From NCBI GenBank assembly GCA_964606485.1, contig CAZSGP010000001.1, positions 289,085-353,084 of the forward strand: 64,000 nucleotides of DNA, given 5' to 3'. The notes beneath the pieces are model-generated. The model was not told where the DNA came from, did no database searches, and worked only from the letters and a program-made list of their open reading frames with translations. The position numbers and the translations under genes are program-made. Positions 13,480 through 61,130 of this stretch are shown here, in pieces (the stretch's first letter is position 1; each line of letters begins with the position of its first letter). The stretch comes from an uncultured Planctomycetia bacterium. GTDB taxonomy: Bacteria; Omnitrophota; Gorgyraeia; 2-02-FULL-51-18.

Positions 13480-13506
13480 GCAGGTTAATATAAAGGAGGG
13501 TATGGA

Positions 13507-14217: not shown

Positions 14218-14250
14218 ACTTTTTCAGCGCTTATTATAATCAAAAGAATC

Positions 14251-14502: not shown

Positions 14503-14775
14503 CCACTAGCTGTATCAAGCTCGTCCACGGCATACGCCTTGTATTAAATTCCTACTTCGTATATAATATAATCCAAAAGAATAGTGCCCATTGTTGCGAG
14601 GATGCCAATGGTTACGCTTGAAATATCTGTTGTCGAAACCATTCTCATAAGCGAGCCGGATGATTTTCAAATCTTAGTTTGGTGTCTCGCTGACCTAAAC
14701 TCATTTTTTTCGGTAATAGCAGCTTTATCAAATGGGGTTATTCAATACGCAGAAGAACAGGGGATTCTTAGCTAA

Positions 14776-15171
14776 ATGGGAGGGTTCAAGATGTCAGAAA
14801 ATAAAAGAATAGTGGCGTGTTATGCGAGGGTTGGTAGAAATTCAATAGAGCAAAGCGGTCACTTTAAAGAAGGTGAAGCGCTGCTTAATCAAATCGAGAA
14901 ATGTAGTTCATTTATTGCTCAAAACAGAACATGGCAAGCTGGGCCAATTTATATGGATATAGCTAGCACAGGCGATTTAGAGAGATCCGGGTATCAGCAG
15001 ATGTTGAAAGACGCGTGGAGTGGAAAATTTCATGTATTGGTTGTTACCGACTTCGATCGCCTTACGAGAAACCTCAGTGAAGGGATGCGTATGGTTCGAG
15101 CTTTTACTAAAGGCCTTGGGATAAAGATTTCGTTCGTTGCTCGGTCTCAAAGGAAGAAGAACAGATGTTAG
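14776..15171 (+). CDS. Resolvase/invertase N-terminal-domain paralogue lacking the nucleophile serine
   Basis: It aligns to the N-terminus of the downstream LSR (SGKFHVLVVTDFDRLTRN versus AGKFQVLVIWKIDRFMRN). The catalytic motif YxRVSTxxQ is replaced by YARVGRNSIEQ, with Ser changed to Gly. It overlaps the LSR start by 7 nt. Confidence 0.6.
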   Translation: MGGFKMSENKRIVACYARVGRNSIEQSGHFKEGEALLNQIEKCSSFIAQNRTWQAGPIYMDIASTGDLERSGYQQMLKDAWSGKFHVLVVTDFDRLTRNLSEGMRMVRAFTKGLGIKISFVARSQRKKNRC

Positions 15172-44117: not shown

Positions 44118-45194
44118 ATGGCGACAAAATTTGCATCAATGACGGAACTTCTCCGATACACGCTTTCGAAACGCGCGTCGGACGTGCATATCGGCGAAAA
44201 TATGGCTCCCATGATGCGGGTAGACTCGGAGCTTGTGCAGATTGAAGACGCGACGGTTTACACTAAAGATGAAATTATGAAATTCATCATGGAGTTTTTA
44301 AGTGAAGAGCGTTTCAAAGTGTTTGAGCAGGAGCGAGAGCTTGATTATTCGTTCGGCATCAAAGACCTTGGACGCTTTCGCGCGAACCTTTATTTTCACA
44401 AAGGTTCGATTGGGGCCGCTGTCCGCGCGCTGCCGTTCGTGCCGATGAATTTTGAAAAAATTGGTTTTCCAGCCGCAGTTGCCGAAAACTTGGCATGCAA
44501 GCCTTCGGGTATGGTTTTGGTTTGCGGGGCAACCGGCTCCGGTAAAACGACGACGCTTGCTGCGATGATTGATTACATCAATCAAACGGACCCAGTTCAT
44601 ATCGTGACCATGGAAGATCCGATTGAATTTGTTTTTCAAGACAAGCGGGCGGTAATTTCTCAGCGCGAAGTGGGTTCGGACACGCACTCGTTTAACCAGT
44701 CATTGAAACATGTGCTGCGCCAAGATCCGGACGTGATACTCGTGGGTGAGCTGCGCGACTTGGAGACCATTGAAATGGCCATGACGGCGGCTGAAACGGG
44801 TCACTTGGTTTTTGCAACCCTTCACACGCCGGACGCGGTGCAGTCCATTAATCGTATCATTGACGTTTTTCCGGCGCATCAACAACAGCAGGTGCGCGTT
44901 CAGTTGTCGTTCGTCATTCAGGCCGTCATTTGTCAGCAGCTCATTCCTCGCGTGGGCGGCGGGTTGTCGCTGGCTCCAGAAATCATGATTGCGACGCCGG
45001 CTATTCGCACACTGATCCGCGATTCGAAGTCTCATCAGATTTATTCTTCGATTCAGATGGGTCAAAAAGAAGGCATGAGAACGATGAATATGAGTTTAGC
45101 AGAGCTTGTGAAGGCGAACCGGATTACAAGGGAAGACGCGTACAATCGCTCCAATGATATTCCGGAACTAGAAAGGTTAATTAATAATCGGTAG
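44118..45194 (+). CDS. pilT: Type IV pilus retraction ATPase PilT
   Basis: GATGSGKTTT Walker A. PilT-length protein (358 aa) lacking the GspE N-domain. Confidence 0.9.
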   Translation: MATKFASMTELLRYTLSKRASDVHIGENMAPMMRVDSELVQIEDATVYTKDEIMKFIMEFLSEERFKVFEQERELDYSFGIKDLGRFRANLYFHKGSIGAAVRALPFVPMNFEKIGFPAAVAENLACKPSGMVLVCGATGSGKTTTLAAMIDYINQTDPVHIVTMEDPIEFVFQDKRAVISQREVGSDTHSFNQSLKHVLRQDPDVILVGELRDLETIEMAMTAAETGHLVFATLHTPDAVQSINRIIDVFPAHQQQQVRVQLSFVIQAVICQQLIPRVGGGLSLAPEIMIATPAIRTLIRDSKSHQIYSSIQMGQKEGMRTMNMSLAELVKANRITREDAYNRSNDIPELERLINNR

Positions 45195-45199
45195 AGACA

Positions 45200-45640
45200 A
45201 TGCCACCTAGAAAAGTTATTCAAAAAAATTTAGGTCAAATCTTGATGGATTCCAAAATCATCACCCAAGAGCAATTGGACAATGCTCTTAAAACGCAGGA
45301 TGAGAAGGGTGGTCTGATCGGACAAATTTTGGTCTCGTTTGGGTTTACGACAGAAGATGCGATTGCCCGTGCGCTGACGGCGCAGTATGGTTTCCCGTAC
45401 ATGCCGCTTGCCGGTTATGAAATGGATGCGCAGGTGGTGAAGCTGATTCCTGAAAACGTCGCCCAACAGTACGAAATCGTGGCGGTGGACCGGATGGGCA
45501 ATGTTTTGACCGTGGCCATGTCTAATCCGCTGAATTATCAGGCCATCGAAGACATTGAAATGCTTACGAAATGCCGCATTCAAACTTTTGTTTCCACTTC
45601 GACAGATATTAAGGAAGCAATCGCAAAGTATTATAAATAG
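45200..45640 (+). CDS. Standalone GspE/MshE N-terminal (MshEN) domain protein, a putative c-di-GMP receptor
   Basis: Two copies of the MshEN-type motif: LGQILMDSKIITQEQLDNALKTQ and IGQILVSFGFTTEDAIARALTAQ. No ATPase domain. Confidence 0.75.
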   Translation: MPPRKVIQKNLGQILMDSKIITQEQLDNALKTQDEKGGLIGQILVSFGFTTEDAIARALTAQYGFPYMPLAGYEMDAQVVKLIPENVAQQYEIVAVDRMGNVLTVAMSNPLNYQAIEDIEMLTKCRIQTFVSTSTDIKEAIAKYYK

Positions 45641-45649
45641 AGGTTTCCA

Positions 45650-47386
45650 ATGCCTTCGATTTCGAAAGAAAAAATTGGCCAGCTGCTGGTTGAAAATAAT
45701 TTCATCACCCAGGAAAAATTAAACGAAGCGCTGGAACTGCAAAAGCAGAAAAAAGAAAATCTGGCGGACATTCTGATTCGCCTGGGCTATATTTCCCGCG
45801 ACAATTTGATGGAAGTGCTCAGTATTGAGCTCGGTATTCCGGCCATCCATCTTTCGAAATATAAAATCACGCCCGAAATTCTTCAGGGTATTCCGAAACG
45901 CATGGCTGAAAACCATTGCATGATGCCTATCTCGCGATTTGGGAACACCATCACCGTTGCCATGGCCGACCCGATGAATGTGATGGCGATCGATGACATT
46001 AAGCGGTTGACCAAAATGGAAGTGAGGCCGGTGCTCGCAAACGAGCTCGACATCAAACAATCGATCGAACAATACTACGGTGTTGGAACAGGGATTGGCG
46101 CAACGGCGACGGGGATTGCGGTTAAAGCCGGGAAAATGGCGGTGGAAGCGGCAGCGCCCGAGCCGGCAGCCAGCGTTTCGGAGTCGCTTTCTGCGCTCGA
46201 TAATGAACCGGTTGTGAAACTGACCAACTCCATTATTGTGGACGGTGTGCTCAGGCGTTCGAGCGATATTTTTATCGAGCCCGAAGAAGCAAGTATGCGC
46301 GTGCGTTACCGCGTCGACGGACTTCTGCAGGAAGGTGTGACGGACGCGAAAGTCATGCATTTGGGAGTGGTTTCAAGAATCAAAGTCATGTCAAAGCTCG
46401 ACATTGCCGAGCACCGTGTTCCTCAAGATGGTCGGTTTAAGGCGAAAGTAAAAGACAAGGAAGTGGATTTCCGTGTTTCGGTTTTGCCAACTTATTTTGG
46501 CGAAAAAATTGTTTTGCGCGTGCTAGATAAGCAATCTTCGGTTCTCGATTTAGAAAAATCTGGATTTGAGCCGGAGCCACTCGCGGCGATCAAAAAAGCT
46601 TCAGAGCATCCACACGGCATGATTGCCATCTGCGGCCCGACGGGTTCTGGAAAAACAACAACACTTTACTCCACCTTAAAATTAATTGATAAGCCTGAAA
46701 CCAATATTGTGACCGTTGAAGACCCGGTCGAATTTCAATTGCCCGGAATCAATCAGGTGGCGGTCCGCTCCGAAGTGAAGCTGACGTTTGCCGCGGCGCT
46801 CCGGTCGATTTTACGCCAAGACCCAGATGTCATCATGGTGGGTGAAATCCGCGATTCTGAAACAGCGGACGTGGCGGTCAAGGCGGCCTTAACGGGACAT
46901 TTGGTTTTGAGCACGCTTCACGCGACCACGGCACCCGGAGCGATTACGCGTCTTGTGAATATGGGCATCGAGCCGTTTCTGATAACGTCAAGCTTGCTGC
47001 TCGCCGGTTCACAGAGACTCGTTCGAAAAGTGTGTGAGAAATGCAAAGAGGGCTACGAGCCTTCCAATGAACTCATTCAACAGCTTGGAATGACCGAAAA
47101 ACAAATCGCCGGAAAAAAATTAGTGTTTTACCGCGGTAAAGGGTGCGATGCCTGTAAAAATAAAGGCTACTCTGGTCGCGCGGTGCTGCTTGAAACGCTC
47201 ACAATTTCTCAGGCCGTCAAAGCGCTGATCTTGAAGGGCGCTCCCGAATACCAACTCAAAGTTCAAGGCCGCAAGGAAGGGATGCTCACCCTCCGGGAAA
47301 ATGGAAACGCTAAAATTTTACAAGGTATCACGACTCCCGAAGAGGTTATGCGCGTGACGGTTCGAGACACGGAAGGCAAGGCATGA
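45650..47386 (+). CDS. pilB: PilB/GspE-family extension ATPase (paralogue 1) with an N-terminal MshEN-like domain
   Basis: GPTGSGKTTT. N-terminal IGQLLVENNFITQEKLNEALELQ. C-terminal Cys4 (CEKCKEGY...CDACKNKGYSGR). Confidence 0.9.
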   Translation: MPSISKEKIGQLLVENNFITQEKLNEALELQKQKKENLADILIRLGYISRDNLMEVLSIELGIPAIHLSKYKITPEILQGIPKRMAENHCMMPISRFGNTITVAMADPMNVMAIDDIKRLTKMEVRPVLANELDIKQSIEQYYGVGTGIGATATGIAVKAGKMAVEAAAPEPAASVSESLSALDNEPVVKLTNSIIVDGVLRRSSDIFIEPEEASMRVRYRVDGLLQEGVTDAKVMHLGVVSRIKVMSKLDIAEHRVPQDGRFKAKVKDKEVDFRVSVLPTYFGEKIVLRVLDKQSSVLDLEKSGFEPEPLAAIKKASEHPHGMIAICGPTGSGKTTTLYSTLKLIDKPETNIVTVEDPVEFQLPGINQVAVRSEVKLTFAAALRSILRQDPDVIMVGEIRDSETADVAVKAALTGHLVLSTLHATTAPGAITRLVNMGIEPFLITSSLLLAGSQRLVRKVCEKCKEGYEPSNELIQQLGMTEKQIAGKKLVFYRGKGCDACKNKGYSGRAVLLETLTISQAVKALILKGAPEYQLKVQGRKEGMLTLRENGNAKILQGITTPEEVMRVTVRDTEGKA

Positions 47387-49155
47387 AAAACCTAAACGAA
47401 TTCTTAATGGACGGTCTCAAAAAATTCACCAAGGTCACCGAGGCGGATGTCCGAAAAGCCGTGGCACTTTATTCCAACAAAGAGAGCGGAAAAATCGGAG
47501 AGGCTCTCATTCAAATGGGGCTTGTCACTGAAAAGGATCTGCGGCTGCTTTTAAGTGTAGAATTAAAAATTACAACGGTAAGCCTTGCGGACAAAAAAAT
47601 AAGCTCTGAGATCGGAAAAATGGTGCCAGAGCGCTACGCGAAGCGGTATTTATTTGTCCCGCTTTCAAACGTGGGCAACACTCTAACGCTCGCGATGGTG
47701 GACCCGCTCAATATTTTTGCGCTCGACGACGTTTCGGTTCTTAAAAATAATCGCGTCGAGTGCGTGATGTGTTCGGAGGGAGATGTTCAGCTGGCGTTCG
47801 ACCGTATTTATGGACGCGTGAAGGATAAGCCTGTAACACCAGAGACGGGAGTAAAGCCTCTGACGGCTGCGGCTGCTGCGGCTAAAGTGGCCAATACGAT
47901 TGGGGATGTTCGCGTTCAGGACGAGACTGACTCCGGCATGTTCGCAGGGGAGACTAATCAGGCGCCAGTGGTTAAAATCGTGGACGCTATCCTGCAAGAG
48001 GCGTTGAGGCGTCGGGCAAGCGACATTCACATTGAGCCCTACGAAGAAAAAGTTCGGGTTCGCTTCCGTATCGACGGAGGACTGCAGGAAGCTCAGGGCG
48101 TTGAAGTTCCAAAGAAAAATCAAAACGCGGTTTTGACTCGTTTAAAGATCATGTCAAAGCTGGACATTACTGAAAACCGAATTCCACAGGACGGTCGTTT
48201 TAAAATTAAATTTCAACAAGACGGCAAAGAAAAGGAAATTGATTTTCGCGTATCAATCCTTCCGATTCACCACGGCAGTAAAGTGGTTATGCGTATTTTA
48301 GATAAAAGTGCTCTGAGTTTGGGACTGGATAATCTTGGATTTTTGCCTGAAACGTTGAATGCCTTTAAAGATGCCGTGGCAAAGCCCTTTGGAATGATAT
48401 TAATCACCGGCCCAACTGGAAGTGGAAAGTCCACCACACTTTACTCCATTTTAAATCAGCTCAACACGCCCGATAAAAATATTATCACCGTCGAAGAGCC
48501 GATCGAATACCAGGTTCGGGGGATTAGCCAGATTCAGGTGCGCCAGGAAATTGGTCTTGATTTTGCCAGCGGCCTTCGCGCTATTTTGCGTCAGAGCCCG
48601 GATGTGGTGATGGTGGGTGAAATCCGCGACGGAGAAACAGCCGACATCGCGATCAAAGCGTCGCTGACGGGACAAATTGTGCTCAGCACGCTTCACACCA
48701 ACGATGCGTCGGGTGCCGTCACCCGCTTGGCGGATATGGGCATCGAGCCCTTCTTAATCGCGTCCAGCGTAATTTTAGTCGCTGCACAACGCCTATGCCG
48801 AAAAGTTTGTTCACAATGCAAACAGCCGATTGATATTCCCAGAGAGGTGTTCGAGCGCATGGGTCTAAACCCCGATACAATGTTCCCGGATATCAAAGAA
48901 AAAAAATTCATGAAAGGCGTCGGATGCGAAAACTGCAGTTTTACCGGGTATCGCGGACGCATGGGGGTGCTTGAGACGCTGATGATTGACGACGAGCTCC
49001 GCGAACTCATCGTTAAACGCGCATCGTCTTATGAAATCAAAGATTATGCCGTCAAGCATGGCATGACAACCTTGAGAGAAGATGCGCTTAAAAAATTTTG
49101 TTTGGGTTCTACGACGCTCGACGAAGTGATTCGCATAACTGCAGAGGACGAATAA
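47383..49155 (+). CDS. PilB/GspE-family extension ATPase (paralogue 2)
   Basis: GPTGSGKSTT. C-terminal Cys4 (CSQCKQ...CENCSFTGYRGR). ATGA overlap with paralogue 1. Confidence 0.9.
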   Translation: MKNLNEFLMDGLKKFTKVTEADVRKAVALYSNKESGKIGEALIQMGLVTEKDLRLLLSVELKITTVSLADKKISSEIGKMVPERYAKRYLFVPLSNVGNTLTLAMVDPLNIFALDDVSVLKNNRVECVMCSEGDVQLAFDRIYGRVKDKPVTPETGVKPLTAAAAAAKVANTIGDVRVQDETDSGMFAGETNQAPVVKIVDAILQEALRRRASDIHIEPYEEKVRVRFRIDGGLQEAQGVEVPKKNQNAVLTRLKIMSKLDITENRIPQDGRFKIKFQQDGKEKEIDFRVSILPIHHGSKVVMRILDKSALSLGLDNLGFLPETLNAFKDAVAKPFGMILITGPTGSGKSTTLYSILNQLNTPDKNIITVEEPIEYQVRGISQIQVRQEIGLDFASGLRAILRQSPDVVMVGEIRDGETADIAIKASLTGQIVLSTLHTNDASGAVTRLADMGIEPFLIASSVILVAAQRLCRKVCSQCKQPIDIPREVFERMGLNPDTMFPDIKEKKFMKGVGCENCSFTGYRGRMGVLETLMIDDELRELIVKRASSYEIKDYAVKHGMTTLREDALKKFCLGSTTLDEVIRITAEDE

Positions 49156-49156
49156 C

Positions 49157-50368
49157 ATGCCAAATTATCGTTATGTTGCACGAGATAAAACCGGAAAAAG
49201 TATTACGGCCGTTATGGACGCTAATGATGAGAAAGCTGTCATCGATTTTGCCCGCCAACAAGGCTTGATTCTGACCTCCATCAAGATAGACGCTCAGGAA
49301 ACCAAGAAGGTTGCCAAGCCCAAAACCGGCAAAAAAATAAAATTAACCGATTTGGTTCTTTTTTCAAGACAGCTGGCAACCATGATTGATAGCGGTATCC
49401 CACTTTTGCAGGCGCTTGAAATTTTATCGGAACAATCTGAAAATCCCGCCTTTGTGAATATATTGAATATCGTTAAAAACGATGTGGCCACCGGAACTGC
49501 CTTTTACGAGGCGCTCGCAAAACATCCGGGCGCATTTACTCCTTTATTTGTGAACATGGTGAAAGCAGGGGAGTCGAGCGGCGCGCTCGATGACATTATG
49601 GAGCGCTTGGCATCCTATCTTGAAAAAACGGATGCACTCATCCGAAAAGTGAAATCCGCCATGACGTATCCGATCGTTGTATCGACCATGGCGCTTAGCA
49701 TTACACTGGTTATGTTGCTTAAAGTAGTGCCTGTGTTTAAGAGTATGTTCGCGGATTTCGGAGCCGCACTCCCGCTCCCGACACAAATCTTAGTCACCAT
49801 CAGCGATAATTTGATCAGCACTTTCTTTCTGTGGTTTTTTGGAGCCATAGCCGGATTTGTAATGTTGGGCAAGTACATCAAGACACCTAAGGGGAGATTA
49901 CGATTCGATCACTTTAAGCTCAACATGCCTGTTTTCGGAGTCATTATGCGAAAAGTTTCGGTGAGCAAGTTTTGCCGCACACTCGCAACACTCGTTAAGA
50001 GCGGCGTGCCGATTTTAGCCGCGCTTGAAATCGTTGGAAAAACCGCCGGAAATAAAGTGATTGAAAACGCCGTCGACAGCGTTAAGTCGAGCATCCGTGA
50101 AGGAGAAAATATCTCCGAGCCTCTTGCCAAATCAAAAGTATTTCCGCCCATGGTGGTGCGCATGATCGCGGTCGGTGAGCAGACCGGAGAACTTGAAAAA
50201 ATGTTGAGCAAGGTTTCTGATTTTTACGACGACCAGGTGGACGCCGCTATTTCAGGGATCACTAGTTTGATCGAGCCGCTCATTATTGCCTTCTTGGGTA
50301 TCGTGATCGGCGGTATCGTGATTTGTATGTTTCTCCCAATCTTTAAGATCGCGAACATGGTTAGCTAG
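49157..50368 (+). CDS. pilC: Type IV pilus / T2SS platform protein PilC/GspF
   Basis: 403 aa. Two GspF repeats. Polytopic. Confidence 0.9.
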   Translation: MPNYRYVARDKTGKSITAVMDANDEKAVIDFARQQGLILTSIKIDAQETKKVAKPKTGKKIKLTDLVLFSRQLATMIDSGIPLLQALEILSEQSENPAFVNILNIVKNDVATGTAFYEALAKHPGAFTPLFVNMVKAGESSGALDDIMERLASYLEKTDALIRKVKSAMTYPIVVSTMALSITLVMLLKVVPVFKSMFADFGAALPLPTQILVTISDNLISTFFLWFFGAIAGFVMLGKYIKTPKGRLRFDHFKLNMPVFGVIMRKVSVSKFCRTLATLVKSGVPILAALEIVGKTAGNKVIENAVDSVKSSIREGENISEPLAKSKVFPPMVVRMIAVGEQTGELEKMLSKVSDFYDDQVDAAISGITSLIEPLIIAFLGIVIGGIVICMFLPIFKIANMVS

Positions 50369-50370
50369 AT

Positions 50371-51849
50371 TTGAAAACACGCCCACACTTTTTTTATATC
50401 ACCTTTATTTGCCTTGCAGGGTTTCTTGCGTATTCCAGCATTTTAAGCGGCGCATTTTTATGGGATGACATTAATTTAGTCCGCGACAATATCTTGATCC
50501 GCAGTTTTAAAAACCTCCCTCTCATTTTTTCTCACAACATCGGCGAGGGTTCCGCCGTGAGCTATATTTTTTACCGCCCCATGCAAGTCTTTAGTTATAT
50601 GTTGGATTTTTCGTGGTGGGGACTGAATCCGGATGGGTACCATTTGACGAACATCGTATGGCATCTTCTGGCTGCGAGTCTTGTTTATTTTGCTGCCTTT
50701 GAAATACTCAAAGATAAAACCGCTTCTTTTTTGACGGCACTTTTATTTGCGCTTCATCCGGTTCACACGGAGGCGGTGGCTTATATTTCAGGGCGCGCCG
50801 ATTCTCTTGCCCTTGTTTTTTTGCTGGCGGCTTTTTTAGGTTACCTGAAATCACTGGAATCTCGCAGGATTGGCATCCAAATAGCGTCAATAGCATTTTT
50901 TTTAATGGCCATTCTTTCAAAGGAAAGTGCGCTTATTTTTCCGGTGCTTATTTTTTTGCATCACCGCGTTTTTAAAACAAAATTTCCAGGACTCCTCTTT
51001 TGGTTATCGGTAGGGATCACCCTAGCCTACGGAGCGCTCCGGCTGACGCTCTTAAGGAGCTTCATGATTTTTGAGTCCGGACACGGAAATATTTTTGAAA
51101 GAATACCCGGATTTTTCGCGTCATATTTGAACTATCTCAAACTGCTCGTGTGGCCGTCGCCCTTGCACATGGAATATGGTTTTACGATTTACAAATGGTC
51201 CGATCCATTTGTCTGGGGCGGCGCTGTGGCGATGACCATTCTTTTACTAGTCATGGTTCAATTGTGGAGGCGAGGGGAACGCGCCATTTTTTTTGGGTGC
51301 GCCTGGTTTCTCGTTGCACTAATCCCTGTATCCAATTTATTTTTACTAAACGCCTCAATGGCGGAGCACTGGCTTTATGTTCCGTCGATTGGAGTTTTTC
51401 TAGCGTTGTCTGAGTGGACAGCACCTCTCTTCAAAAAGTCAAAATTAAAGGAATTGGCGGTGATCAGTGTTGCCGCAATTTTAGCAGGCTATGGACTCGC
51501 CACATTTGAACAGTCCAAAACATGGAAAGACCCGGTTATTTTTTACGAAAGAACGCTAGATTATGCCCCCAATAGTCTTGCCGTGAATGTAAATTTAGGG
51601 CTCGCACTTTATGAGAGAGGTGAAATTTCAAAAGCGTATCTTGTTTTTAAAAAAGCGGTGGAGCTTGGGCCGAATCAGTATTTCCCGTACTTTGGTCTGG
51701 GGTTGTGCGCAAATTCCTTGGGTAAACACCCGGAGGCGATAGCTGCCTACAACCGTTGCCTGGAGCTAAAGCCAGACTTGGTTCAGGCGCATAATAATTT
51801 ATCGGAAATTTATTACCCTAAAACTTTAAAAGGGGGAAGAGGTGAATAG
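50371..51849 (+). CDS. TMTC/PMT-like GT-C fold glycosyltransferase homologue (DUF1736-type) with C-terminal TPR repeats
   Basis: N-terminal FLWDDINLVRDN (acidic loop-1 motif) and GYHLTNIVWHLL resemble TMTC O-mannosyltransferases. Polytopic. C-terminal TPRs. Overlaps the pilin start. Confidence 0.65.
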   Translation: MKTRPHFFYITFICLAGFLAYSSILSGAFLWDDINLVRDNILIRSFKNLPLIFSHNIGEGSAVSYIFYRPMQVFSYMLDFSWWGLNPDGYHLTNIVWHLLAASLVYFAAFEILKDKTASFLTALLFALHPVHTEAVAYISGRADSLALVFLLAAFLGYLKSLESRRIGIQIASIAFFLMAILSKESALIFPVLIFLHHRVFKTKFPGLLFWLSVGITLAYGALRLTLLRSFMIFESGHGNIFERIPGFFASYLNYLKLLVWPSPLHMEYGFTIYKWSDPFVWGGAVAMTILLLVMVQLWRRGERAIFFGCAWFLVALIPVSNLFLLNASMAEHWLYVPSIGVFLALSEWTAPLFKKSKLKELAVISVAAILAGYGLATFEQSKTWKDPVIFYERTLDYAPNSLAVNVNLGLALYERGEISKAYLVFKKAVELGPNQYFPYFGLGLCANSLGKHPEAIAAYNRCLELKPDLVQAHNNLSEIYYPKTLKGGRGE

Positions 51850-52213
51850 AAGTTTAAGCGAGGCCGGATTTACACTCGTCGAAATTATGATCGTCGTAGC
51901 TATTATTGGATTGCTGGCTGCTATAGCGGTCCCTAACTTTGTCAGAGCCAGAGAATCCGCTCGCAGTAGCGCCTGCGTGAATAACTTGCGCCTAATTGAT
52001 GCGTCCAAAGAGCAGTATGCTTTGGAAAATAACATCGCGCATGGCGGGGCTACCACCTCTGATAGCCTGACGCCCTATCTGAAAAATAATGCATTTCCGC
52101 AGTGTCCGGCTACAAGTTCTACGTACGCCACGAATGCTGTGGGGACCTATCCTAGTTGCGACCTGTCAGGAGCCTCTTCCGGGCAAACCCCGCTGAGCCA
52201 TCGACTCAATTAA
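51842..52213 (+). CDS. Type IV pilin / pseudopilin (prepilin N-terminal methylation motif)
   Basis: Leader MNRSLSEAG followed by FTLVEIMIVVAIIGLLAAIAVPNF. Ser/Thr-rich C-terminal third. Confidence 0.8.
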   Translation: MNRSLSEAGFTLVEIMIVVAIIGLLAAIAVPNFVRARESARSSACVNNLRLIDASKEQYALENNIAHGGATTSDSLTPYLKNNAFPQCPATSSTYATNAVGTYPSCDLSGASSGQTPLSHRLN

Positions 52214-52334
52214 GTTCAGCTTGTTAATAGTGTAAATATATAAGTCTATAATGTTGATATTATTGATAACTATGTTATATTATAGTATATAAATAGTAAT
52301 TAATGATAAATTTAAAGCTAATTTTTCCTTAACT
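52214..52334. promoter_or_regulatory. AT-rich tract (>80% AT) separating the pilin gene from the downstream block. It contains TTGATA / TATATA-like promoter elements.
   Basis: Composition is sharply different from the flanking ~50% GC coding sequence. Confidence 0.3.
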
Positions 52335-53555
52335 GTGCAGTTGGTGCCGATGAGAAACTCATATCATTTATACGCTCCGGGAGATCAGTTTCAGATTGAT
52401 ATTAAATATCTCTCGGCCGGCGGTGAGCAGGCGAGTGAGAGTAAGGTTGTCAATGTGGCGGATGTGAGAGGCGGGGGTTTTTTTGGAAAAGTGCTGATCC
52501 TTCGGGGTGAGGGCTTTGTGATTAAAACAACTCAGCCCGATCCGTGGCAGCATTTTTGGAGAATTGTGAATTGGGATTTTAAGCCATTTCCAGCCCAGCA
52601 GGATGAATTATCCGCTCAGATCGAACACCTATCCACTCAGATCATTCACCTGACTCTCCCCATTGTTTCTGGGGGAAAGTTTTATAGTCCTCGGTCCATT
52701 GGCTACACGCTTTTAGCGAATGGATTCGCTCAAGTGATAGAGAAAATGAGCGGTCGAGGACCTCGTTTTGACAAGGCGGGCAATGAGTATGAGTTATTTC
52801 GCCAGGCGCAGTCGGAGCTCGCCACAATTGCTCTGAGTCTTGGATTGGAGGCTGTTGGACAAATTCATCCGGACAACCCTTTTAGTATGGCGAACCTGTG
52901 GTTAGACGAGAGCCGGAATCGCTTTGTCTGGCTGGATACAAACGCGGCAATTCGTCATACCGGTTGGGTGAAACCAATATTTTATTTCAAATTTCATAAG
53001 CGTATTCGAAATGAGTTTGGGGGTAAAGAGCTTACGTTTAATAAGATTCATGCTGACCGATTTCGCGCAACGCTTAAGCGGAAGCAAGGCGAATTTGATG
53101 AAAAAATTTACGCGATGATTATGAATTATTTAGATTTGTACGAACGTTTATGGAATAGACGAAAGGTTCGGCATGAAAATCAATCCTTTGATGTGGAGAA
53201 TGTCTTTCTTGTGCTGAGGCAGCTAGCCCTAAACATAGTCCCGGGTATTGTGCATGCGTTACGGAAGACGCTGATGTGTCCCATGCAGTTGGTGTTTAAG
53301 AGCCGGTTCGGTCATCAGCTACGACTTCAGTCCGCATTGCAGGCTTTGCAGTGTGGATTGCTATCGCAGGATGAATATTGCCAGGCTATAGATGGTGATC
53401 GAACGCTGCTTCGGCACTGTGTTATCCGAAAATTTATTCGTGATCTCTCTAAAATTAGTCCAGCCGGAGGTGTGGGGTCCCAGTTGGATGCGCAGCTTTG
53501 GCTCAAGTTAGGAAGTCGGATAGAGAAGATATTGGAAAGCCGGCAATGCGCTTAA
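52335..53555 (+). CDS. Atypical kinase-fold protein (eukaryotic-like kinase / APH / Kdo-kinase type)
   Basis: Gly-rich loop plus Lys (GGGFFGKVLILRGEGFVIK). Brenner-type catalytic motif HPDNPFSMANLW. WLDTN (DFG-like). GTG start at 52335 or ATG at 52350. Confidence 0.45.
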   Translation: MQLVPMRNSYHLYAPGDQFQIDIKYLSAGGEQASESKVVNVADVRGGGFFGKVLILRGEGFVIKTTQPDPWQHFWRIVNWDFKPFPAQQDELSAQIEHLSTQIIHLTLPIVSGGKFYSPRSIGYTLLANGFAQVIEKMSGRGPRFDKAGNEYELFRQAQSELATIALSLGLEAVGQIHPDNPFSMANLWLDESRNRFVWLDTNAAIRHTGWVKPIFYFKFHKRIRNEFGGKELTFNKIHADRFRATLKRKQGEFDEKIYAMIMNYLDLYERLWNRRKVRHENQSFDVENVFLVLRQLALNIVPGIVHALRKTLMCPMQLVFKSRFGHQLRLQSALQALQCGLLSQDEYCQAIDGDRTLLRHCVIRKFIRDLSKISPAGGVGSQLDAQLWLKLGSRIEKILESRQCA

Positions 53556-56500
53556 TAGAGAAGGAGGGGCAAGGGAGAAATTTTGTGAGACTTTGCGTTA
53601 AGCTTCTTTTGATTTTTGATGTGATTCTTTGCTTGCTGCACCAGCTATTTCCGCATTATCAATGGGGTCAGGGCAGGAGCTCCTATTTCACTCTCTCAAG
53701 TGCAATGACACTGAGTTCTTGGTTTATCAGTATGCAGTTAATCGGGATATCGATCTTCTCATTGCTAACTCTTCTTAAGAGGTGGGACTGGGGGCGACGG
53801 GGTACTTTTCAATGGGTTTGGTTTTTATTGGTATCGGCCGCGTTATCCGTGGCGGAGTTTACGCGATTTCATATCAAAATGAACTTTCTCAATCCCCTTG
53901 ATTCAAACATCTTTCATTCGATTGGAGTCTATCTGCTTGGGGGTATGTTTTTAGGTGTAAGCGGCACACTCATCTGGATGACGCCTGGAGCCTCGTTGCG
54001 GACGAAAATCTTGAGCTTTGGGTGGCTTCTATCGTGGTTGGGCGCAGGCTTATTAACACTGGGTAGCGCATGGGCGCCCGCTGATTGGATGGGCGCGGTT
54101 GCCTATTTATTTGGCACTACGTTGTGGCTAGCGGTAGCTTCAGAACTCTATTTTCAAGAACCAAGTCAGGAGCATCGTGCCGATAACGCCAAAGAAGCTC
54201 CTCCTGTTTCAATTGGCTCAACATGGCTGCTGCTGGGAGTTGCGGGAAGCTCATTTACGATGATTTTTTTACAAGTACTACACTTTCAAATTTTGACCGT
54301 TGCGGTGGATACCCTGGCCGCGCACTCTGTGCTTCCGCTCGCACTCATTGGAATTGCCGTGGGAGGAATTCTGGGGTTGAGAATATCGAGAATGGATTCG
54401 GCGGGGCAATTGAGCGTCGGACTTGCGGCGCTACTGCCAATTTCAATTTGTGCTAGTTTTGCTGTGGCGTCAAATGAGCCCTCACATTTAGCGCTTGGTT
54501 TGGCGCTACTTTTTATTCCGTTTATGATTTGCGGCGCACTCATCACATTAGGTCTCGTATGGTTGCAACCGAGCGTTGTGTATTGTGTGGATTTATTGGG
54601 AGCGGCGCTAGGCGCTTTTTGTCTTCCCTTTTGTTTGGCTTATTTTCAAGAGGAGGGTAGTCTTTGGTTTTTAGCGGCAATCGCTTGCTTGGTAGCCGTT
54701 TGTTTTGCAAAGGCTTATCGAATGTTCGGCCGCCGATTCTCCGTAATCCCCTATCTGGCGCTCGCTGGGTTTATGGCGTTCACGGCAATGGCTTATACGC
54801 AAAAACAGGGGCAGGGGCTGAATATCGTAGCCCCTAAAATCCAGGCGAGCTTTCCCGGCTCAGAAATCATTTTTTCAAAGTCATCTTTTGTAGGGCGGGT
54901 TGATTTGGTACGACGAAGCCGTAAAAGCGATTTGCTAAAGGCCTATGAGAACGGTTTTACCATTGATACGATTCGCAAAAATATCCCTGAGCAGTATCAA
55001 ATCGATCCGCGGATACCCAGCCGGCTGGCAACGAACCCAAAAATTCTTATTCTAGGTCTTGCTGGAGATGGGGTTACTAAAACGGCCAAACAACTGAGCA
55101 ACTCCGTCACGGGAGTAGAGATAAACCCTGCCATGGTTGCTTTACAGAAGAGTGAAGCCTCTGAATTTAACGCAAACAGTTACCAGGGCATCGATGTCAA
55201 GGTTATGGATGCCCGCAGCTTTCTTCAAACTAGTTCCGAACAATATGACGTCCTTACTCTATTAAACGCGCACACTGCTCGCGGCCGGGCGCATTATAGC
55301 GGGGTCAGTGCTGAGTATCTCCATACCAAAGAGGCGGTGCGAGAGTATTGGGATCATATGACTCCAAGAGGATTTCTAAGCATTGAGGAGCCCGCTGATC
55401 GCCCATCAAAGGAGCCTGGCATCTGGAAGTTTCTGGTAACCATGCGGGGCGCTCTGTTGGATGCGGGAGCACAGAACCCTGAAAATCATTTTTTTGTTTT
55501 TCAATGGAAGACAAAATCAAATAATTACATCCAGATCATCCTAAAGAAGTCTCCCTTTACGCAAGAGCAAATCTCCGATTTAAAAAAATGGCTCGATGAG
55601 ATTGATCGGTTGCGAGAAATAGAGAAAATCCAGCAGAGGCGTCTAGGACCCATAGACTGCAAAACAACTTTGCTTTACTCGCCCGGGGAGAATGTTCAAA
55701 CCACCTATGCCAACCTGATTCGCGGAACTGCTAACCCGCAATTGCACAAACAGCGCAACCTAGTTCCGGCGACTGATGACCGGCCATTTTTGTTTAACAC
55801 CGATCCTCGGCAGGGGGCTTTGTACAGTGTTTATCTGCGAACGCTTCTATTGGTTTTACTTCTGGGAGCTTGGTTGATAGGGTTGATGAGAAAACAAAAT
55901 GCCAAGTCATTTGAAGTTCTATCAGTGCTGTGCATGGCATCGTTAACAGGCGTTGGGTATTTATTGGTAGAGCTTGTCTTGATGCAGCGGTATCAAATTT
56001 TTTTAGGGTCTCCCGTCACGGTGTTTTGCGTGGTTTTAGGATCTATGCTGGTATTCTCAGGTTTAGGCAGTTTGTGGGGTGCCCGCCACGGTTTGAGGGC
56101 TATGGTGTTTTCAATTATTGGCGTGGTGGTGAATTTATGGATGCACCAGCAGTTTGCCCCCATTTTTTTGGATAAATTTTCCAATCAAGCATTGATCATA
56201 AAGTGCTTTATTACCATAGCGAGTTTAGCCCCGTTATCATTTTTTATGGGAGTTCCATTTCCTTACCTTATCCAGAATATTAAAGAGCGTTTAAACGCCT
56301 CATTTGCCGGGGCGGCGGTTGCCGCAAATGCAGGGGCAAGTGCGCTTGGTGTCCCCCTAGCATTGATGCTTTCGATGAAACTAGGTTTTAACGGTGCATT
56401 TGCCTGCGCTATGCTTATTTATGGTGCGGTTGCCGTTTCGTTTTTTTGGATGAACCGGAATAGGTTTGCTATAGCAGGATTTTTTTCTTTGACGATTCTC

Positions 56501-57343
56501 GCGGTAACGTTGGCCAGCCCAACCTTGATTAATTTGTGTTCCGGTGATTTGAAAGACAAAAATAATGGATACCAGGTTTATGGAATTCGTTACGGACGAT
56601 CACTCATGGCTGAACGACAGCTGATTCGCGGGGGGGATAAAAATAAGAAGGTTTCTTTGGATTGGAGATTTTGGCTCGTTCAGGGGTCTGGTAAAAATAT
56701 ACTGGTTGATACGGGTTTTGAAAATCCATCTTTGGCGCGCCAGAAGCATTTTTCAAAGTATGTTCGCCCATCAAAAAAACTTTCCGATCTTGGAATAGAG
56801 CCTTCTGAAATTACGGATGTGATTTTGACTCATGCGCATTGGGATCACGCGGGCGGTGTGCGGATGTACCCGAATGCCGTTATCTGGATGCAGAGCCGAG
56901 AGTGGGAGCATATGCTCCAGCTAAAAGTGAGCAATCAAAAAAAGGTTAAGGGTATGCGATACAAGGATTTCGAGGCGCTAGAACAAGCTTATGAGCAAGG
57001 CCGTTTACGATTGTTGAGCGGAGATGCGGATGTAGCTAGCGGCATTCGTGTTGAACTGGGTGGCGGACACACGCCCGGGTCTCAGGCGGTGATCGTCAAG
57101 GGCTTGGAAGGCAATTTTATTATCGCGGGGGACACCACTTATCTTTATCGAAACAGCCAATGGCATCAACCGATTGGGGGCGGTGCGGATTCCGAAGAAA
57201 ATTTACGAATGATTCGGCGTTTTCACGCAGACTCAGCGTCCCCTTACTATATTTTACCCGGACACGATCCATTGATTGGCCGGTGTTTTCCGGAGGTTGC
57301 CAAAGGAATTGTTGAGATCACCTCCGCGGCGGAGCGTCGATGA
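53546..57343 (+). CDS. Giant polytopic membrane protein fusing a spermidine-synthase-like domain and a C-terminal MBL-fold (lactonase-like) domain
   Basis: About 440 aa of transmembrane helices. PABS-like region ILILGLAGDG...VTGVEINPAMVAL...DVKVMDARSFL...YDVLTLL. A second transmembrane block. C-terminal HAHWDHAGG (HxHxDH, AiiA-like). The start could instead be the track's 53498. Confidence 0.7.
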   Translation: MRLIEKEGQGRNFVRLCVKLLLIFDVILCLLHQLFPHYQWGQGRSSYFTLSSAMTLSSWFISMQLIGISIFSLLTLLKRWDWGRRGTFQWVWFLLVSAALSVAEFTRFHIKMNFLNPLDSNIFHSIGVYLLGGMFLGVSGTLIWMTPGASLRTKILSFGWLLSWLGAGLLTLGSAWAPADWMGAVAYLFGTTLWLAVASELYFQEPSQEHRADNAKEAPPVSIGSTWLLLGVAGSSFTMIFLQVLHFQILTVAVDTLAAHSVLPLALIGIAVGGILGLRISRMDSAGQLSVGLAALLPISICASFAVASNEPSHLALGLALLFIPFMICGALITLGLVWLQPSVVYCVDLLGAALGAFCLPFCLAYFQEEGSLWFLAAIACLVAVCFAKAYRMFGRRFSVIPYLALAGFMAFTAMAYTQKQGQGLNIVAPKIQASFPGSEIIFSKSSFVGRVDLVRRSRKSDLLKAYENGFTIDTIRKNIPEQYQIDPRIPSRLATNPKILILGLAGDGVTKTAKQLSNSVTGVEINPAMVALQKSEASEFNANSYQGIDVKVMDARSFLQTSSEQYDVLTLLNAHTARGRAHYSGVSAEYLHTKEAVREYWDHMTPRGFLSIEEPADRPSKEPGIWKFLVTMRGALLDAGAQNPENHFFVFQWKTKSNNYIQIILKKSPFTQEQISDLKKWLDEIDRLREIEKIQQRRLGPIDCKTTLLYSPGENVQTTYANLIRGTANPQLHKQRNLVPATDDRPFLFNTDPRQGALYSVYLRTLLLVLLLGAWLIGLMRKQNAKSFEVLSVLCMASLTGVGYLLVELVLMQRYQIFLGSPVTVFCVVLGSMLVFSGLGSLWGARHGLRAMVFSIIGVVVNLWMHQQFAPIFLDKFSNQALIIKCFITIASLAPLSFFMGVPFPYLIQNIKERLNASFAGAAVAANAGASALGVPLALMLSMKLGFNGAFACAMLIYGAVAVSFFWMNRNRFAIAGFFSLTILAVTLASPTLINLCSGDLKDKNNGYQVYGIRYGRSLMAERQLIRGGDKNKKVSLDWRFWLVQGSGKNILVDTGFENPSLARQKHFSKYVRPSKKLSDLGIEPSEITDVILTHAHWDHAGGVRMYPNAVIWMQSREWEHMLQLKVSNQKKVKGMRYKDFEALEQAYEQGRLRLLSGDADVASGIRVELGGGHTPGSQAVIVKGLEGNFIIAGDTTYLYRNSQWHQPIGGGADSEENLRMIRRFHADSASPYYILPGHDPLIGRCFPEVAKGIVEITSAAERR

Positions 57344-59907
57344 TGAGACCATCCGAGCGGCTTTTGAACATTTTGTTGTTTAGCCTGTTTGCCGCGGCAG
57401 TTATTTTTGGTGTGCTGCACGGCGTGTACCAGGATTGGCAGGTGGGTGGAGTGGAGTGGTTTAATCTGGACCGGGAGAGAAATTTTCCAACATGGTTTTC
57501 AGGTTTTGTGCTTTTTTTGATGGGTTGCTCCTCTGTGGTTGCCTACTACTGGGAAAAGAAGCGATTGGCTGAGGGGGTTAAGCACTTTAAGCTGCCGGTG
57601 CTATGGTTAGGAGTGGCGTTTTTAAGCTTTTTAATGTCACTAGATGAAATGACCGCGCTTCACGAGAATATTTGCTGGCGCGAGATTCGTCAGTTTTCCG
57701 CTTCAAAAGGCGGGGGCTTCGAGCATGTCACCCAATGGCAAATTCTTTTTATCCCGCTTCTATTGATCATCTTTTCTTACTTCGCCGTGTTTTTTTTAAA
57801 TCGATTTGCTTCTAGCGCCCGCATGCGCTTTTGGGGTCTGTCGGGCCTAGGGTGCCTGCTGTTTTCTATCGCTTTGGAGGGGCTAAGAAATTGGTTTAAA
57901 CATCATGGGCACGACTTTTACAGCGCACAGGTTTTGGGTGAGGAATTATTAGAAATGTTTGGGATGTTGTTTATTTTTGGAGCCATTCAGTTCTACGTGA
58001 AAGATATTTCTAACAGCTCCGCGGGCTTAAACCCAAAGAGACTGCCAGTAGGACCTGCTTTTTTTACTCGCAAATCCGCGGGAGCTCTTTTAATACTATT
58101 TGTCGCCTTTACGTTACTCGCACTGCTTGCGTATAAAACAGCTGCGAGCTTATCGAAAAAAGGGGTGGGGGCACCCAAATTGTTTGATCAAGCTCTTCGT
58201 TCCAACTTAAAGGAGACAAACGAAAAATCGGTGGTATGGTTTGAAAATGTTGAAGGTGTTGGCAATACCTTAACTTTCGAACAGGGGGCTCAAATGGTTC
58301 GCTCCGCGCACCTAGCGCTGAAATCACCTGGCGAGACTGCTCATAGTTGGCCGCTAGATCTATCGAATGATCAAGCCCCTAGAATCGCATTTCTTTCAGT
58401 AACCACTGGTAAGTCTAGGGCCCGAGTTTTTTCTGGGACGGGCCTCGGTTACACAAAGGCTCTGGAGCAATCGATAGTAAAGGCTCGCAAGGTTTTTAAA
58501 AACTCTCAGAAAAATTTATGGGTTAAGCTGGATATCGTTTCAGAGGTCAGAGTTGCGGCTTCTAATAACCCGGATGATTTTGAAGGGCTTAGTTTTGGTC
58601 TAGAGGGTATTGCCACCGGCAAACCGTCGCCTTCCGCGCTTATACCGGAAGTTCTTTCCTCGCGCGGTTACATCAGTTCCGCGGGCCGCCCCACCTCAAA
58701 GCTTACGGAATGGATCTCCAATAGAAAAGAAGCCCAAAACATTTTCCGCTTTAAAACAAAAAGTTATTTTAGCGACAAAGATACGGTTGTGGAGCTCTAT
58801 AGGGGTCATCGGGTGTACGATCAGCTGAGTCGAGAGATTTTGATGGATTCAGCAAAACGCGCAGGCGAATACCTTGTGAGAAATACGGATGAGAACGGAC
58901 GATTTAATTATATTTATAAGCCCGAAGTGAACCGGGTGATAAATTCATATAACGTGGTGCGTCATGCGGGAACCCTCTATTCAATGATGGAGCTTTATGA
59001 GGCGGCACCGGATCCAGAGCTTTTATCGGCCGCCACCCGCGCTATTAGCCACTTATTGAGTTATGCGCGACCTGTGGAGACTCGTTTGGGCAATGCGCTT
59101 GCAATTGTGGACGGGACGAGTGTGAAACTTGGAGCCAATGCTCTGACGGTTGTTGCATTATCAAAGTATATGCAAGTCACCGGAGACCGTAAAGAGGCGG
59201 ATAAGTTAATCAAGCTCGGCCTTTATATTCGAGATTCACAACTAGAATCTGGCGAGTTTATTTGTAAACGAGAGCACCCTAGCGGCAATCAAATTCCATT
59301 TCAATCGGAGTACTACCCCGGCGAAGCTATATTGGCCATGGTCAGGCTCTATGAACATGATCCGCAACCTTACTGGCTAGACAGCGCCCAAAAAGCTACC
59401 GATTTTCTGATTCATGTCAGGGATAAGGGTTTAGCGACGGAAAAGCTCATCCATGATCATTGGCTTATTATGGGATTAAATGCTCTGGCTGAACACAGAC
59501 CGGACGCTAGTCATACCCAGCATGCCCTTCGAATTGCGGAGGCTATTATGAAGAGCCAGATTCAACATTCAGCCATAGAAGATTATATCGGGGGATGGGG
59601 CGAGCCCCCGCGGGCTACGCCTGCCGCTACTCGAAGCGAAGGTTTGATAGCGGCTTATCGAATAGCCGAGCGGCAAGGAATGAATGATTTTAAAATTAAG
59701 GTAATGGACTCGCTGGGGAAGGCTGTCAAATTTCAGCTAGGAAACCAATTTGGGTCCGAATCTTCCATGTATATGCCATTCCCAAAAAAATCAATCGGCG
59801 CCTATCGCCGTAGTCATTTATCCTACGAGACACGAATTGACTATAGCCAACATAACATCTCTAGTTTAATAGGGTTATGTAGTATTCTTAATAAGTTAGA
59901 AGATTAA
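57340..59907 (+). CDS. Membrane protein with a large C-terminal soluble alpha-helical (toroid-like) domain
   Basis: About 280 aa N-terminal transmembrane region. ATGA overlap with the upstream ORF. No confident domain assignment. Confidence 0.5.
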   Translation: MMRPSERLLNILLFSLFAAAVIFGVLHGVYQDWQVGGVEWFNLDRERNFPTWFSGFVLFLMGCSSVVAYYWEKKRLAEGVKHFKLPVLWLGVAFLSFLMSLDEMTALHENICWREIRQFSASKGGGFEHVTQWQILFIPLLLIIFSYFAVFFLNRFASSARMRFWGLSGLGCLLFSIALEGLRNWFKHHGHDFYSAQVLGEELLEMFGMLFIFGAIQFYVKDISNSSAGLNPKRLPVGPAFFTRKSAGALLILFVAFTLLALLAYKTAASLSKKGVGAPKLFDQALRSNLKETNEKSVVWFENVEGVGNTLTFEQGAQMVRSAHLALKSPGETAHSWPLDLSNDQAPRIAFLSVTTGKSRARVFSGTGLGYTKALEQSIVKARKVFKNSQKNLWVKLDIVSEVRVAASNNPDDFEGLSFGLEGIATGKPSPSALIPEVLSSRGYISSAGRPTSKLTEWISNRKEAQNIFRFKTKSYFSDKDTVVELYRGHRVYDQLSREILMDSAKRAGEYLVRNTDENGRFNYIYKPEVNRVINSYNVVRHAGTLYSMMELYEAAPDPELLSAATRAISHLLSYARPVETRLGNALAIVDGTSVKLGANALTVVALSKYMQVTGDRKEADKLIKLGLYIRDSQLESGEFICKREHPSGNQIPFQSEYYPGEAILAMVRLYEHDPQPYWLDSAQKATDFLIHVRDKGLATEKLIHDHWLIMGLNALAEHRPDASHTQHALRIAEAIMKSQIQHSAIEDYIGGWGEPPRATPAATRSEGLIAAYRIAERQGMNDFKIKVMDSLGKAVKFQLGNQFGSESSMYMPFPKKSIGAYRRSHLSYETRIDYSQHNISSLIGLCSILNKLED

Positions 59908-60045: not shown

Positions 60046-60612
<567 letters not shown>

Positions 60613-60641
60613 TTATGAGCAGTAGAAGAAAAGGAGTTTTT

Positions 60642-61130
60642 GTGAAAAGCGCAGATAGATCGGGATTCACGTTGGTAGAGGTACTGCTTGCATCGGTGCT
60701 AGCGATCGTGGCCCTTACGGCTGTAGGGCTCCTGATTACCGACAGCGGTGTTTTTGCTTCGCGAAACAACCGATCGAATGTATATGCGTTAAACGCTGTT
60801 CGTGAGCAAATTGAAGATATTCGCAACACCAACTTCGATACTCTCATCGGTTATGGTAGCCCCTATTCGTTTACCAACGCTCAGTTGGCTATGATCCCTG
60901 GGGCAATTGGGAGTGTTGTTTTGGCTGATGCGGCAGGAAGTGATATTAAAAAGATCACCGTCTCTGTTACCTGGGTTGGAGCGAAAGGAGAAAGCCTTTC
61001 TACGAGTGCAACGACTCAAATTTCTCGCTCCGGGATCAATAGTGGATCCGGTGTTGCAAGAAGCCCATCTGGCGGCGATGATGACGATGACGATGATGAC
61101 GACGATGACGGCGATGACGACGATGATTAG
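60642..61130 (+). CDS. Paralogous GspI/PilV-like minor pilin with a shorter poly-Asp tail
   Basis: GTG start with an AAGGAG ribosome-binding site. RSGFTLVEVLLASVLAIV. About 60% identical to the upstream paralogue. Tail D11-G-D5. Confidence 0.8.
   Translation: MKSADRSGFTLVEVLLASVLAIVALTAVGLLITDSGVFASRNNRSNVYALNAVREQIEDIRNTNFDTLIGYGSPYSFTNAQLAMIPGAIGSVVLADAAGSDIKKITVSVTWVGAKGESLSTSATTQISRSGINSGSGVARSPSGGDDDDDDDDDDDGDDDDD
61077..61127 (+). repeat. In-frame (GAY)n repeat encoding D11-G-D5
   Basis: Direct reading. Confidence 0.9.

Follow-up and report, generated by a model that had tools for sequence, protein, structure and literature searches.

The closest described counterpart of the system reported here is TfpW of Pseudomonas aeruginosa group IV (Pa5196/PA7), a GT-C enzyme of 646 amino acids acting as a pilin D-arabinofuranosyltransferase. 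TfpW crosses the membrane with 11 transmembrane (TM) helices, starting from a cytoplasmic N-terminus. Its periplasmic loop 1 carries a DDX motif that is essential, its C-terminal tetratricopeptide repeat (TPR) domain is located in the periplasm, and its best structural template is ArnT. The tfpW gene is located immediately downstream of pilA and co-transcribed with it, and its product O-glycosylates Ser and Thr residues of the pilin, including positions 64 and 66, with D-arabinofuranose (D-Araf). Full-length prokaryotic homologues of the TMTC O-mannosyltransferases have already been noted by Eisenhaber et al. without a function, and no substrate has been assigned to any of them. In this work, we analysed a 64,000-nucleotide stretch of contig CAZSGP010000001.1 (the window), the source organism of which was placed in Omnitrophota by the comparison of homologues and PilC loci. 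The window encodes a TMTC-like GT-C enzyme with TPRs between pilC and a prepilin gene. Judging from sequence comparisons, we hold with little more than even confidence that this enzyme O-glycosylates the pilin as an analogue of TfpW.

The elements of the proposed enzyme–substrate pair are located in the window as follows:

50371..51849, plus strand: TMTC-like GT-C glycosyltransferase with a C-terminal TPR domain, 492 amino acids, TTG start (AlphaFold2 model, GT-C fold, TMTC3 homology, 1340 homologues)
50371..51516, plus strand: membrane GT-C domain, residues 1–382, 11 predicted TM helices, N-terminus inside (helix map)
50464..50469, plus strand: D32-D33, the DD motif of periplasmic loop 1 (TMTC motif M1), invariant in 33 sequences and aligned to TMTC3 D31/D32; its role is described in PMC7801869
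51532..51816, plus strand: three TPR repeats, residues 388–482, predicted to be periplasmic (Pfam TPR_1/TPR_11, six model helices, topology count)
51842..52213, plus strand: prepilin of 123 amino acids with a 9-residue leader and a mature part of 114 residues (N_methyl and TIGR02532 matches, GFTLVE motif)
52052..52072, plus strand: Ser/Thr cluster of the alpha-beta loop, mature A-T62-T63-S64-D-S66-L-T68, candidate O-glycosylation site
52160..52210, plus strand: C-terminal tail past the last Cys, DLSGASSGQTPLSHRLN, second candidate site

The initial annotation had placed a GT-C/TPR gene between pilC and the pilin, and this arrangement was borne out at 50371–51849. The open reading frame (ORF) starts 2 nucleotides (nt) past the pilC stop, and its TAG stop (51847–51849) overlaps the GTG start of the prepilin (51842) by 8 nt. 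A site scan revealed no promoter-like or terminator-like site between pilC, the GT-C gene and the pilin, and neither a sigma-54 -24/-12 site nor a convincing sigma-70 site was seen upstream of the pilin. Co-transcription of the GT-C gene with pilC and the prepilin gene is strongly supported by this layout, and translational coupling to both neighbours is probable.

The public gene call P0001 (430 amino acids) begins at an internal GTG, 62 codons late (window 50371–50556; L001 9815–10000). With this start, TM1 and the catalytic loop with its invariant DD are lost, and a spurious intergenic gap of 188 nt appears after pilC. In the alignment of 33 sequences (the window protein and 32 homologues), the homology extends from approximately residue 4, and the residues D32, D33, G89, H91 and H98 are invariant, so the TTG start is taken to be real. 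Both N-terminal strings quoted in the initial annotation are present, LWDDINLVRDN as residues 30–40 and GYHLTNIVWHLL as residues 89–100. A truncated or decaying gene was ruled out, as the motifs are all intact and many family members are 450–520 amino acids long.

The helix map and the topology count indicated short, K/R-rich inner loops, and all invariant polar motifs were located in the outer loops. The invariant residues of the periplasmic loops are D32/D33, Y68-R69-P70, R142-x-D144, K184-E185, H266-x-E268-Y269 and E332-H333-x-x-Y336. The AlphaFold2 models reached a predicted local distance difference test score of 90.5 at full length and 84.2 for the N-terminal domain. A predicted topology with 11 TM helices, a cytoplasmic N-terminus and a periplasmic TPR domain is thus strongly supported, and the DD motif falls in the first periplasmic loop, where the initial annotation had expected it. 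Of the 30 best Foldseek matches of the N-terminal domain model in the PDB, 29 were GT-C enzymes, led by ArnT and STT3 and followed by AglB, Pmt4, PglB, DPY19, Pmt1/2, ALG3/9, AftD and Emb. The full-length model gave an agreeing result. According to these models, the membrane domain of the enzyme has a GT-C fold.

The sequence databases recognised little of this domain. The Pfam and NCBIfam searches of the N-terminal domain returned no family match even at E<=10, only the TPRs being recognised, and sequence searches of the PDB returned TPR proteins alone with the full-length profile and nothing with the N-terminal domain profile. PMT_2 (PF13231) did not match the N-terminal domain of the window enzyme; 10 of the 19 relatives matched it weakly, with a best E of 1.2e-7. 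At the C-terminus, the TPR_1 match had an E of 3.4e-13 and the TPR matches of Pfam spanned residues 380–482. The C-terminus described initially as TPR-rich does consist of TPRs, but there are just about three of them (residues 388–481), whereas the paralogues carry 6–12. This three-repeat domain is presumed to be the acceptor-binding module.

A TPR protein encoded within a pilus assembly operon could also be an assembly scaffold resembling PilF, PilW or Tgl, with a polytopic anchor that is no longer catalytic. NCBIfam did return weak TPR-based matches to PilW, Tgl and GltE, but these lie far under the cut-offs (35 bits against 154) and reflect generic TPR similarity. The catalytic and donor-binding motifs are all invariant across the family and intact in the window enzyme, and we consider a scaffold role very improbable.

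The nature of the acceptor was also considered from the structural side. The best single match of the N-terminal domain model among the solved structures was ArnT (5f15; E 9.4e-5, TMq 0.53, root-mean-square deviation 6.9), and H266-x-E268 is nearer to the H-E-H metal site of ArnT than to the DW motif of TMTC. Both observations would suit an enzyme that modifies a non-protein acceptor (lipid A, the core of lipopolysaccharide (LPS), a lipid or some other glycan of the envelope), in the manner of ArnT and of GT-C enzymes in three-component systems. However, ArnT-type enzymes carry no TPR domain, and the two characterised kinds of GT-C enzymes with TPRs, TMTC and TfpW, have protein acceptors. A Pfam scan of approximately 40 ORFs of the window showed no LPS or glycan biosynthesis genes nearby; the genetic linkage, as described below, is to pilins. 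A non-protein acceptor is therefore improbable in our view, if less so than a scaffold.

The relationship to TMTC was analysed at the level of motifs. For this, we used what we take to be the N-terminal sequence of human TMTC3. It was checked only at its seven motif positions, which all agree with Table 4 of PMC7801869, in which Eisenhaber et al. defined the seven TMTC motifs. BLASTP against this sequence gave 32% identity over residues 21–188 (E 3e-23) and 24% over residues 302–468 (E 5e-13), and hhalign of the family profile gave a probability of 99.75% (E 3e-27, 348 columns). The motifs compare as follows:

M1, DD: TMTC3 31/32; window D32/D33; kept
M2, YRP: TMTC3 70–72; window 68–70; kept, with the S-H-K part of (SHKS)YRP lost
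M3, RxD: TMTC3 143–145; window RAD 142–144; kept
M4, KE: TMTC3 188/189; window KES 184–186 (KE 184/185); kept, with the T of KE(T/Q)xxT lost
M5, DW: TMTC3 303/304; window LHMEYG; replaced
M6, PxxP in TM9: TMTC3 358–361; window P319-x-x-N322; half kept, invariant in the family
M7, ERxxY in loop 5: TMTC3 375–379; window EHWLY 332–336; kept with R changed to H, invariant in the family

The motifs M1–M4 of the window enzyme lie at most 4 residues off their TMTC3 positions and are invariant or nearly so. Meanwhile, DUF1736 (PF08409) gave no match at E<=10 in the window enzyme or in 19 relatives. Of the TMTC/DUF1736 character claimed at the outset, the TMTC part stands, with five of the seven motifs kept at close spacing in addition to the BLASTP and hhalign results, and the DUF1736 part does not. 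The sequence evidence strongly supports the window enzyme as a true TMTC homologue.

To place the window locus among its relatives, 80 orthologous loci from species-representative genomes were compared, with PilC as the anchor; 20 of them were comparable, having a pilin of the window type and enough downstream sequence. The canonical order of these loci is pilT, mshEN, pilB, pilB, pilC, one or two pilins and pilM-N-O-P-Q. Of the 20 comparable loci, 9 have a GT-C/TPR gene encoding 630–700 amino acids immediately after the last pilin and before pilM (L005, L006, L008, L012, L032 and L049, as well as L007, L013 and L067, in which the contig ends within the gene). Only 3 other family members occurred among approximately 890 other genes of these loci (Fisher p 3e-14, with related sequences treated as independent and phylogeny not corrected, as in all the linkage and Ser/Thr statistics given here). 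A pilin-anchored scan of metagenomes yielded six further pairs of pilin and GT-C genes outside pilBC loci, one of which (L127) shares the gene order of the window. In the sequences compared, the adjacency of pilin and GT-C genes is above chance. The linkage of the family to pilus loci, which the initial annotation had made a point to check in relatives, was thus found.

Several of these loci have features of their own. The metagenomic loci L092 (5881–9965), L096 (5962–9148) and L127 (3308–6378) contain orphan pilins beside distant members of the GT-C/TPR family, with no adjoining pilB or pilC; in L092, a short-chain dehydrogenase-like gene stands between the pilin and the GT-C/TPR gene. In L015, the pilin is followed by a 524-residue polytopic ORF (11909–13483) with a YPPLLH motif. 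Its PMT_2 match was below the threshold (E 0.0085) and hhalign gave no match, so it was not counted as a GT-C gene of this family. The protein may represent a GT-C enzyme of another kind that occupies this position.

The pilin-linked genes belong to at least two lineages, a clade with an FLFDE motif and the pair L049 and L067. The window enzyme represents a third lineage and scored 425 bits on a hidden Markov model of the unlinked paralogues and 213 bits on that of the pilin-linked clade. The pilin of L007 is the closest to the window pilin (77% identity), yet it is followed by an enzyme of the FLFDE clade. In view of this mismatch, the lineage of the window appears to have swapped one paralogue for another.

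The pilin itself was then compared between linked and unlinked loci. The window prepilin starts with the leader MNRSLSEAG followed by FTLVEIMIVVAIIGLLAAIAVPNF (FTLVE, with F at +1, E at +5 and a hydrophobic N-terminal helix), and it matches PF07963 N_methyl with an E of 1.3e-6 and TIGR02532 with 29.1 bits against a cut-off of 16.3. With the pilins encoded after pilC in relatives it shares 50–77% identity, and it is probably the major pilin. The stretch of it quoted in the initial annotation contains 12 Ser/Thr among 31 residues, and mature residues 56–114 are 29% Ser/Thr.

The alpha-beta loop (mature residues 54–71) contained 5.25 Ser/Thr residues in the linked pilins and 2.5 in the unlinked ones (Mann–Whitney U test, p 3e-4). 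Beyond residue 55, the Ser/Thr content was 26% in linked and 20% in unlinked pilins (p 0.003). A tail ending in SHRL[DN] was found in 4 of the 10 GT-C-linked pilins (the window, L007, L012 and L032) and in none of the 12 others (p 0.029). Since related sequences were treated as independent, the significance of these pilin tests is overstated. Pilins with the full tail pattern, C-x-L-[SA]-G-x-x-x-G-x-[TS]-P-x-SHRL[DN], form a subtype that was seen only in loci carrying a GT-C/TPR gene. The position of the window loop matches Ser63 of Neisseria PilE. In the Pa5196 pilin, the residues Thr64 and Thr66 modified by TfpW lie in the same region as T62–T68 of the window loop. The pilin peptides covering the candidate sites are the GGATTSDSLTPYLK peptide and the C-terminal peptide.

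These results bear on the earlier suggestion that the pilin, with its Ser/Thr-rich C-terminal third, is the substrate: recurrent linkage and the enrichment of Ser/Thr in linked pilins speak for it, and the stronger signal comes from the alpha-beta loop, so the C-terminal third is not the only region in question. We propose the pilin as the substrate of the enzyme on these comparisons.

A number of observations weigh against a dedicated pilin glycosyltransferase. The other 11 of the 20 related loci do without a neighbouring GT-C gene. The window enzyme and the pilin-linked enzymes of relatives are not orthologues and share approximately 30% identity, as compared with approximately 40% between the window enzyme and unlinked paralogues. 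The window enzyme is also encoded upstream of the pilin, whereas the GT-C genes of relatives lie downstream. Its closest database relatives (approximately 40% identity) are encoded in non-pilus loci, often in tandem arrays of 3–7 paralogues, and no orthologue with more than 44% identity was present in the loci fetched, save an identical database copy. The profile search at E<=1e-3 returned 110,722 cluster representatives, and in a family this large some adjacency to pilins is to be expected. Neither a GT2 polyprenyl-phosphate glycosyltransferase nor a GtrA or MATE flippase was found among the approximately 40 ORFs scanned. Furthermore, no pilMNOPQ homologues were found anywhere in the window, which points to a rearranged locus.

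Most members of the family are encoded in tandem arrays away from pili. Arrays of 3–7 GT-C/TPR paralogues with no pilus genes nearby were seen in L083 (4268–10652), L084/L085 (1247–14562) and L087/L088 (1–12755). The Omnitrophota tandem arrays are a striking local expansion of the TMTC-like family. No paralogue of the enzyme was found within the window.

Such a background would also suit a general or otherwise dedicated periplasmic protein O-glycosyltransferase, one of many TMTC-like paralogues with TPR specificities of their own, which was placed next to the pilin by rearrangement; the pilin would then be one of many substrates or none at all. The clustering of the window enzyme with unlinked paralogues, the non-pilus loci and tandem arrays of its closest relatives and the very large size of the family all agree with this explanation. 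It is kept alive by the rearranged state of the window locus, in which pilMNOPQ are absent and large unrelated genes follow the pilin. On the other side, members of the same superfamily stand beside pilins in at least three other lineages and on unrelated metagenomic contigs, and the 2-nt gap to pilC and the 8-nt overlap with the pilin are a tight coupling. The window pilin bears the Ser/Thr-rich loop and tail typical of GT-C-linked pilins, and the pattern fits an enzyme of the DE clade that was lost and replaced by a recruited paralogue. We regard a general glycosyltransferase as unlikely, though as the most serious of the alternatives.

If this inner-membrane enzyme does glycosylate the pilin, a single sugar would be drawn from a polyprenyl-phosphate carrier, by analogy with TMTC, PMT, ArnT and TfpW. 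The membrane-anchored pilin would be held by the TPR domain of the enzyme, and the sugar would be moved to Ser/Thr hydroxyls of the pilin before polymerisation. The likely sites would be T62–T68 of the alpha-beta loop, the C-terminal tail or both. The initial annotation had suggested a mechanism different from known pilin glycosylation. This claim fails, since a GT-C enzyme with TPRs encoded next to a pilin is already known in TfpW. The comparison supports a TMTC-family enzyme that probably takes the role of TfpW in an uncultured phylum, the paralogues having been recruited independently, and not a new mechanism.

An enzyme and a small candidate acceptor encoded side by side, in a pairing that recurs across lineages and with a Ser/Thr content that tracks the enzyme, make a concrete enzyme–substrate hypothesis. 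Should it hold, pilin glycosylation in the style of TfpW, with single sugars from polyprenyl phosphate, would reach well past Gammaproteobacteria, and a link would exist between the mechanism of TfpW and the human TMTC family. The exposed pili of the ultra-small, probably host-attached Omnitrophota would then be masked by glycans; a study on Pseudomonas describes the masking of pili by glycans as a guard against pilus-specific phages (10.1101/150227). The three-TPR enzyme and its 114-residue pilin could also be used to study the recognition of acceptors by enzymes of the TMTC class.

A wider generalisation is offered only tentatively, as its chance of being right is rather below even. Bacterial TMTC-type enzymes would be protein O-glycosyltransferases in which the TPRs choose individual acceptors. 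At least three times, and separately, Omnitrophota and other uncultured lineages would have drawn members dedicated to pilins from the expanded pool of paralogues. The family would also include TfpW, and the window pair would be a minimal natural TMTC enzyme–substrate system.

The genes upstream of the GT-C gene form a plus-strand pilus block (44118–50368) identified by Pfam matches to T2SSE, MshEN and T2SSF, with a PilT-like gene, an MshEN-only gene, two pilB genes and pilC. These genes and the other features of the pilus region are the following:

44118..45194, plus strand: PilT-like retraction ATPase that opens the pilus block (T2SSE, E 4.4e-45); position kept in 40+ related loci
45200..45640, plus strand: small MshEN-only protein (MshEN, E 4.8e-19), conserved in related loci
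45650..47386, plus strand: PilB-type assembly ATPase, paralogue 1 (T2SSE, E 1.9e-133, and MshEN)
47383..49155, plus strand: PilB-type assembly ATPase, paralogue 2 (T2SSE, E 4.4e-136, and MshEN)
49157..50368, plus strand: PilC platform protein (T2SSF, E 1.7e-67)
52224..52283, plus strand: AT-rich gap with sigma-70-like sites (three 10/12 matches)
60046..61130, plus strand: two minor-pilin-like genes of 188 and 173 amino acids with GFTLVEV prepilin motifs

The two full-length PilB-type ATPases in tandem (45650–49155), each with an MshEN domain and placed behind a stand-alone MshEN protein, are conserved across the Omnitrophota loci examined. To judge from the sites in the AT-rich gap, a separate unit likely begins there, downstream of the pilin. 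Where relatives have pilMNOPQ, the window has three large genes behind the pilin (52335–59907). The product of orf406 has no family. In the product of orf1281, a polytopic membrane region is joined to a spermidine-synthase-like domain and, at the C-terminus, to a metallo-beta-lactamase fold; the orf855 product has N-terminal TM helices and no family.

Two further regions of the window were recorded. A probable integrated mobile element occupies 8036–16811; besides ORFs that match no family, this region encodes a Zn-ribbon/Toprim primase, a helicase of the PIF1-like kind and a large serine recombinase. At 1678–4527, a 949-residue protein carries TPRs together with a C-terminal domain of GreA/GreB and the PIN domain known from the 'TPR-GreAB-C-PIN' system.

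Among the known systems, PglL/TfpO (PilO) enzymes are also polytopic pilin O-glycosylators facing the periplasm, and tfpO lies beside pilA. However, they belong to another family (Wzy_C/O-antigen-ligase-like) and transfer preassembled oligosaccharides en bloc from undecaprenyl diphosphate; no Wzy_C domain was found in the window enzyme or in the other ORFs scanned. ArnT (GT83, the undecaprenyl-phosphate-L-Ara4N:lipid A transferase, L-Ara4N being 4-amino-4-deoxy-L-arabinose) is the best solved structural match and uses a single-sugar donor linked through a monophosphate, and its H-E-H-like metal site in loop 4 resembles H266-x-E268 of the window enzyme. ArnT differs in having a lipid acceptor and no TPR domain, and it gave no match at the sequence level in the PDB profile searches.

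The TMTC1-4 proteins (CAZy GT105), O-mannosyltransferases of cadherins and protocadherins, show significant homology to the window enzyme over the entire membrane domain, and 11 TM helices are followed in both by TPRs, lumenal in the one and predicted to be periplasmic in the other. The motifs DD, YRP, RxD, KE and E[R/H]xxY, together with the stretches HP[IV]HTEAV and P-x-SNLF, are common to both at near-identical spacing. On the other hand, loop 4 of the window enzyme is approximately 40 residues shorter than the DUF1736 segment of TMTC and has LHMEYG for DW, PxxP is changed to PxxN, and three TPRs stand for the long C-terminal TPR region of the TMTCs. The acceptor would be a pilin in place of a cadherin domain, and the carrier would be a bacterial polyprenol in place of dolichol.

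The likeness to TfpW, drawn from the description of that enzyme, lies in the architecture and in the adjacency to the pilin. D-Araf donor genes (DPPR synthase, DprE1/2 and GtrA-like) were absent from the approximately 40 ORFs scanned; such genes can be unlinked, as they are in P. aeruginosa. TfpW additionally polymerises its glycan. Its loop 4 motif YX6PFX7P corresponds to Y-x6-P-F in the family consensus and to Y255-x6-P262-S in the window enzyme, in which the Y and P are invariant and the distal P is absent. The window enzyme, with 492 amino acids and three TPRs, is encoded upstream of its pilin, whereas the 646-residue TfpW is encoded downstream, and the genes of 630–700 amino acids in the relatives stand in the tfpW order.

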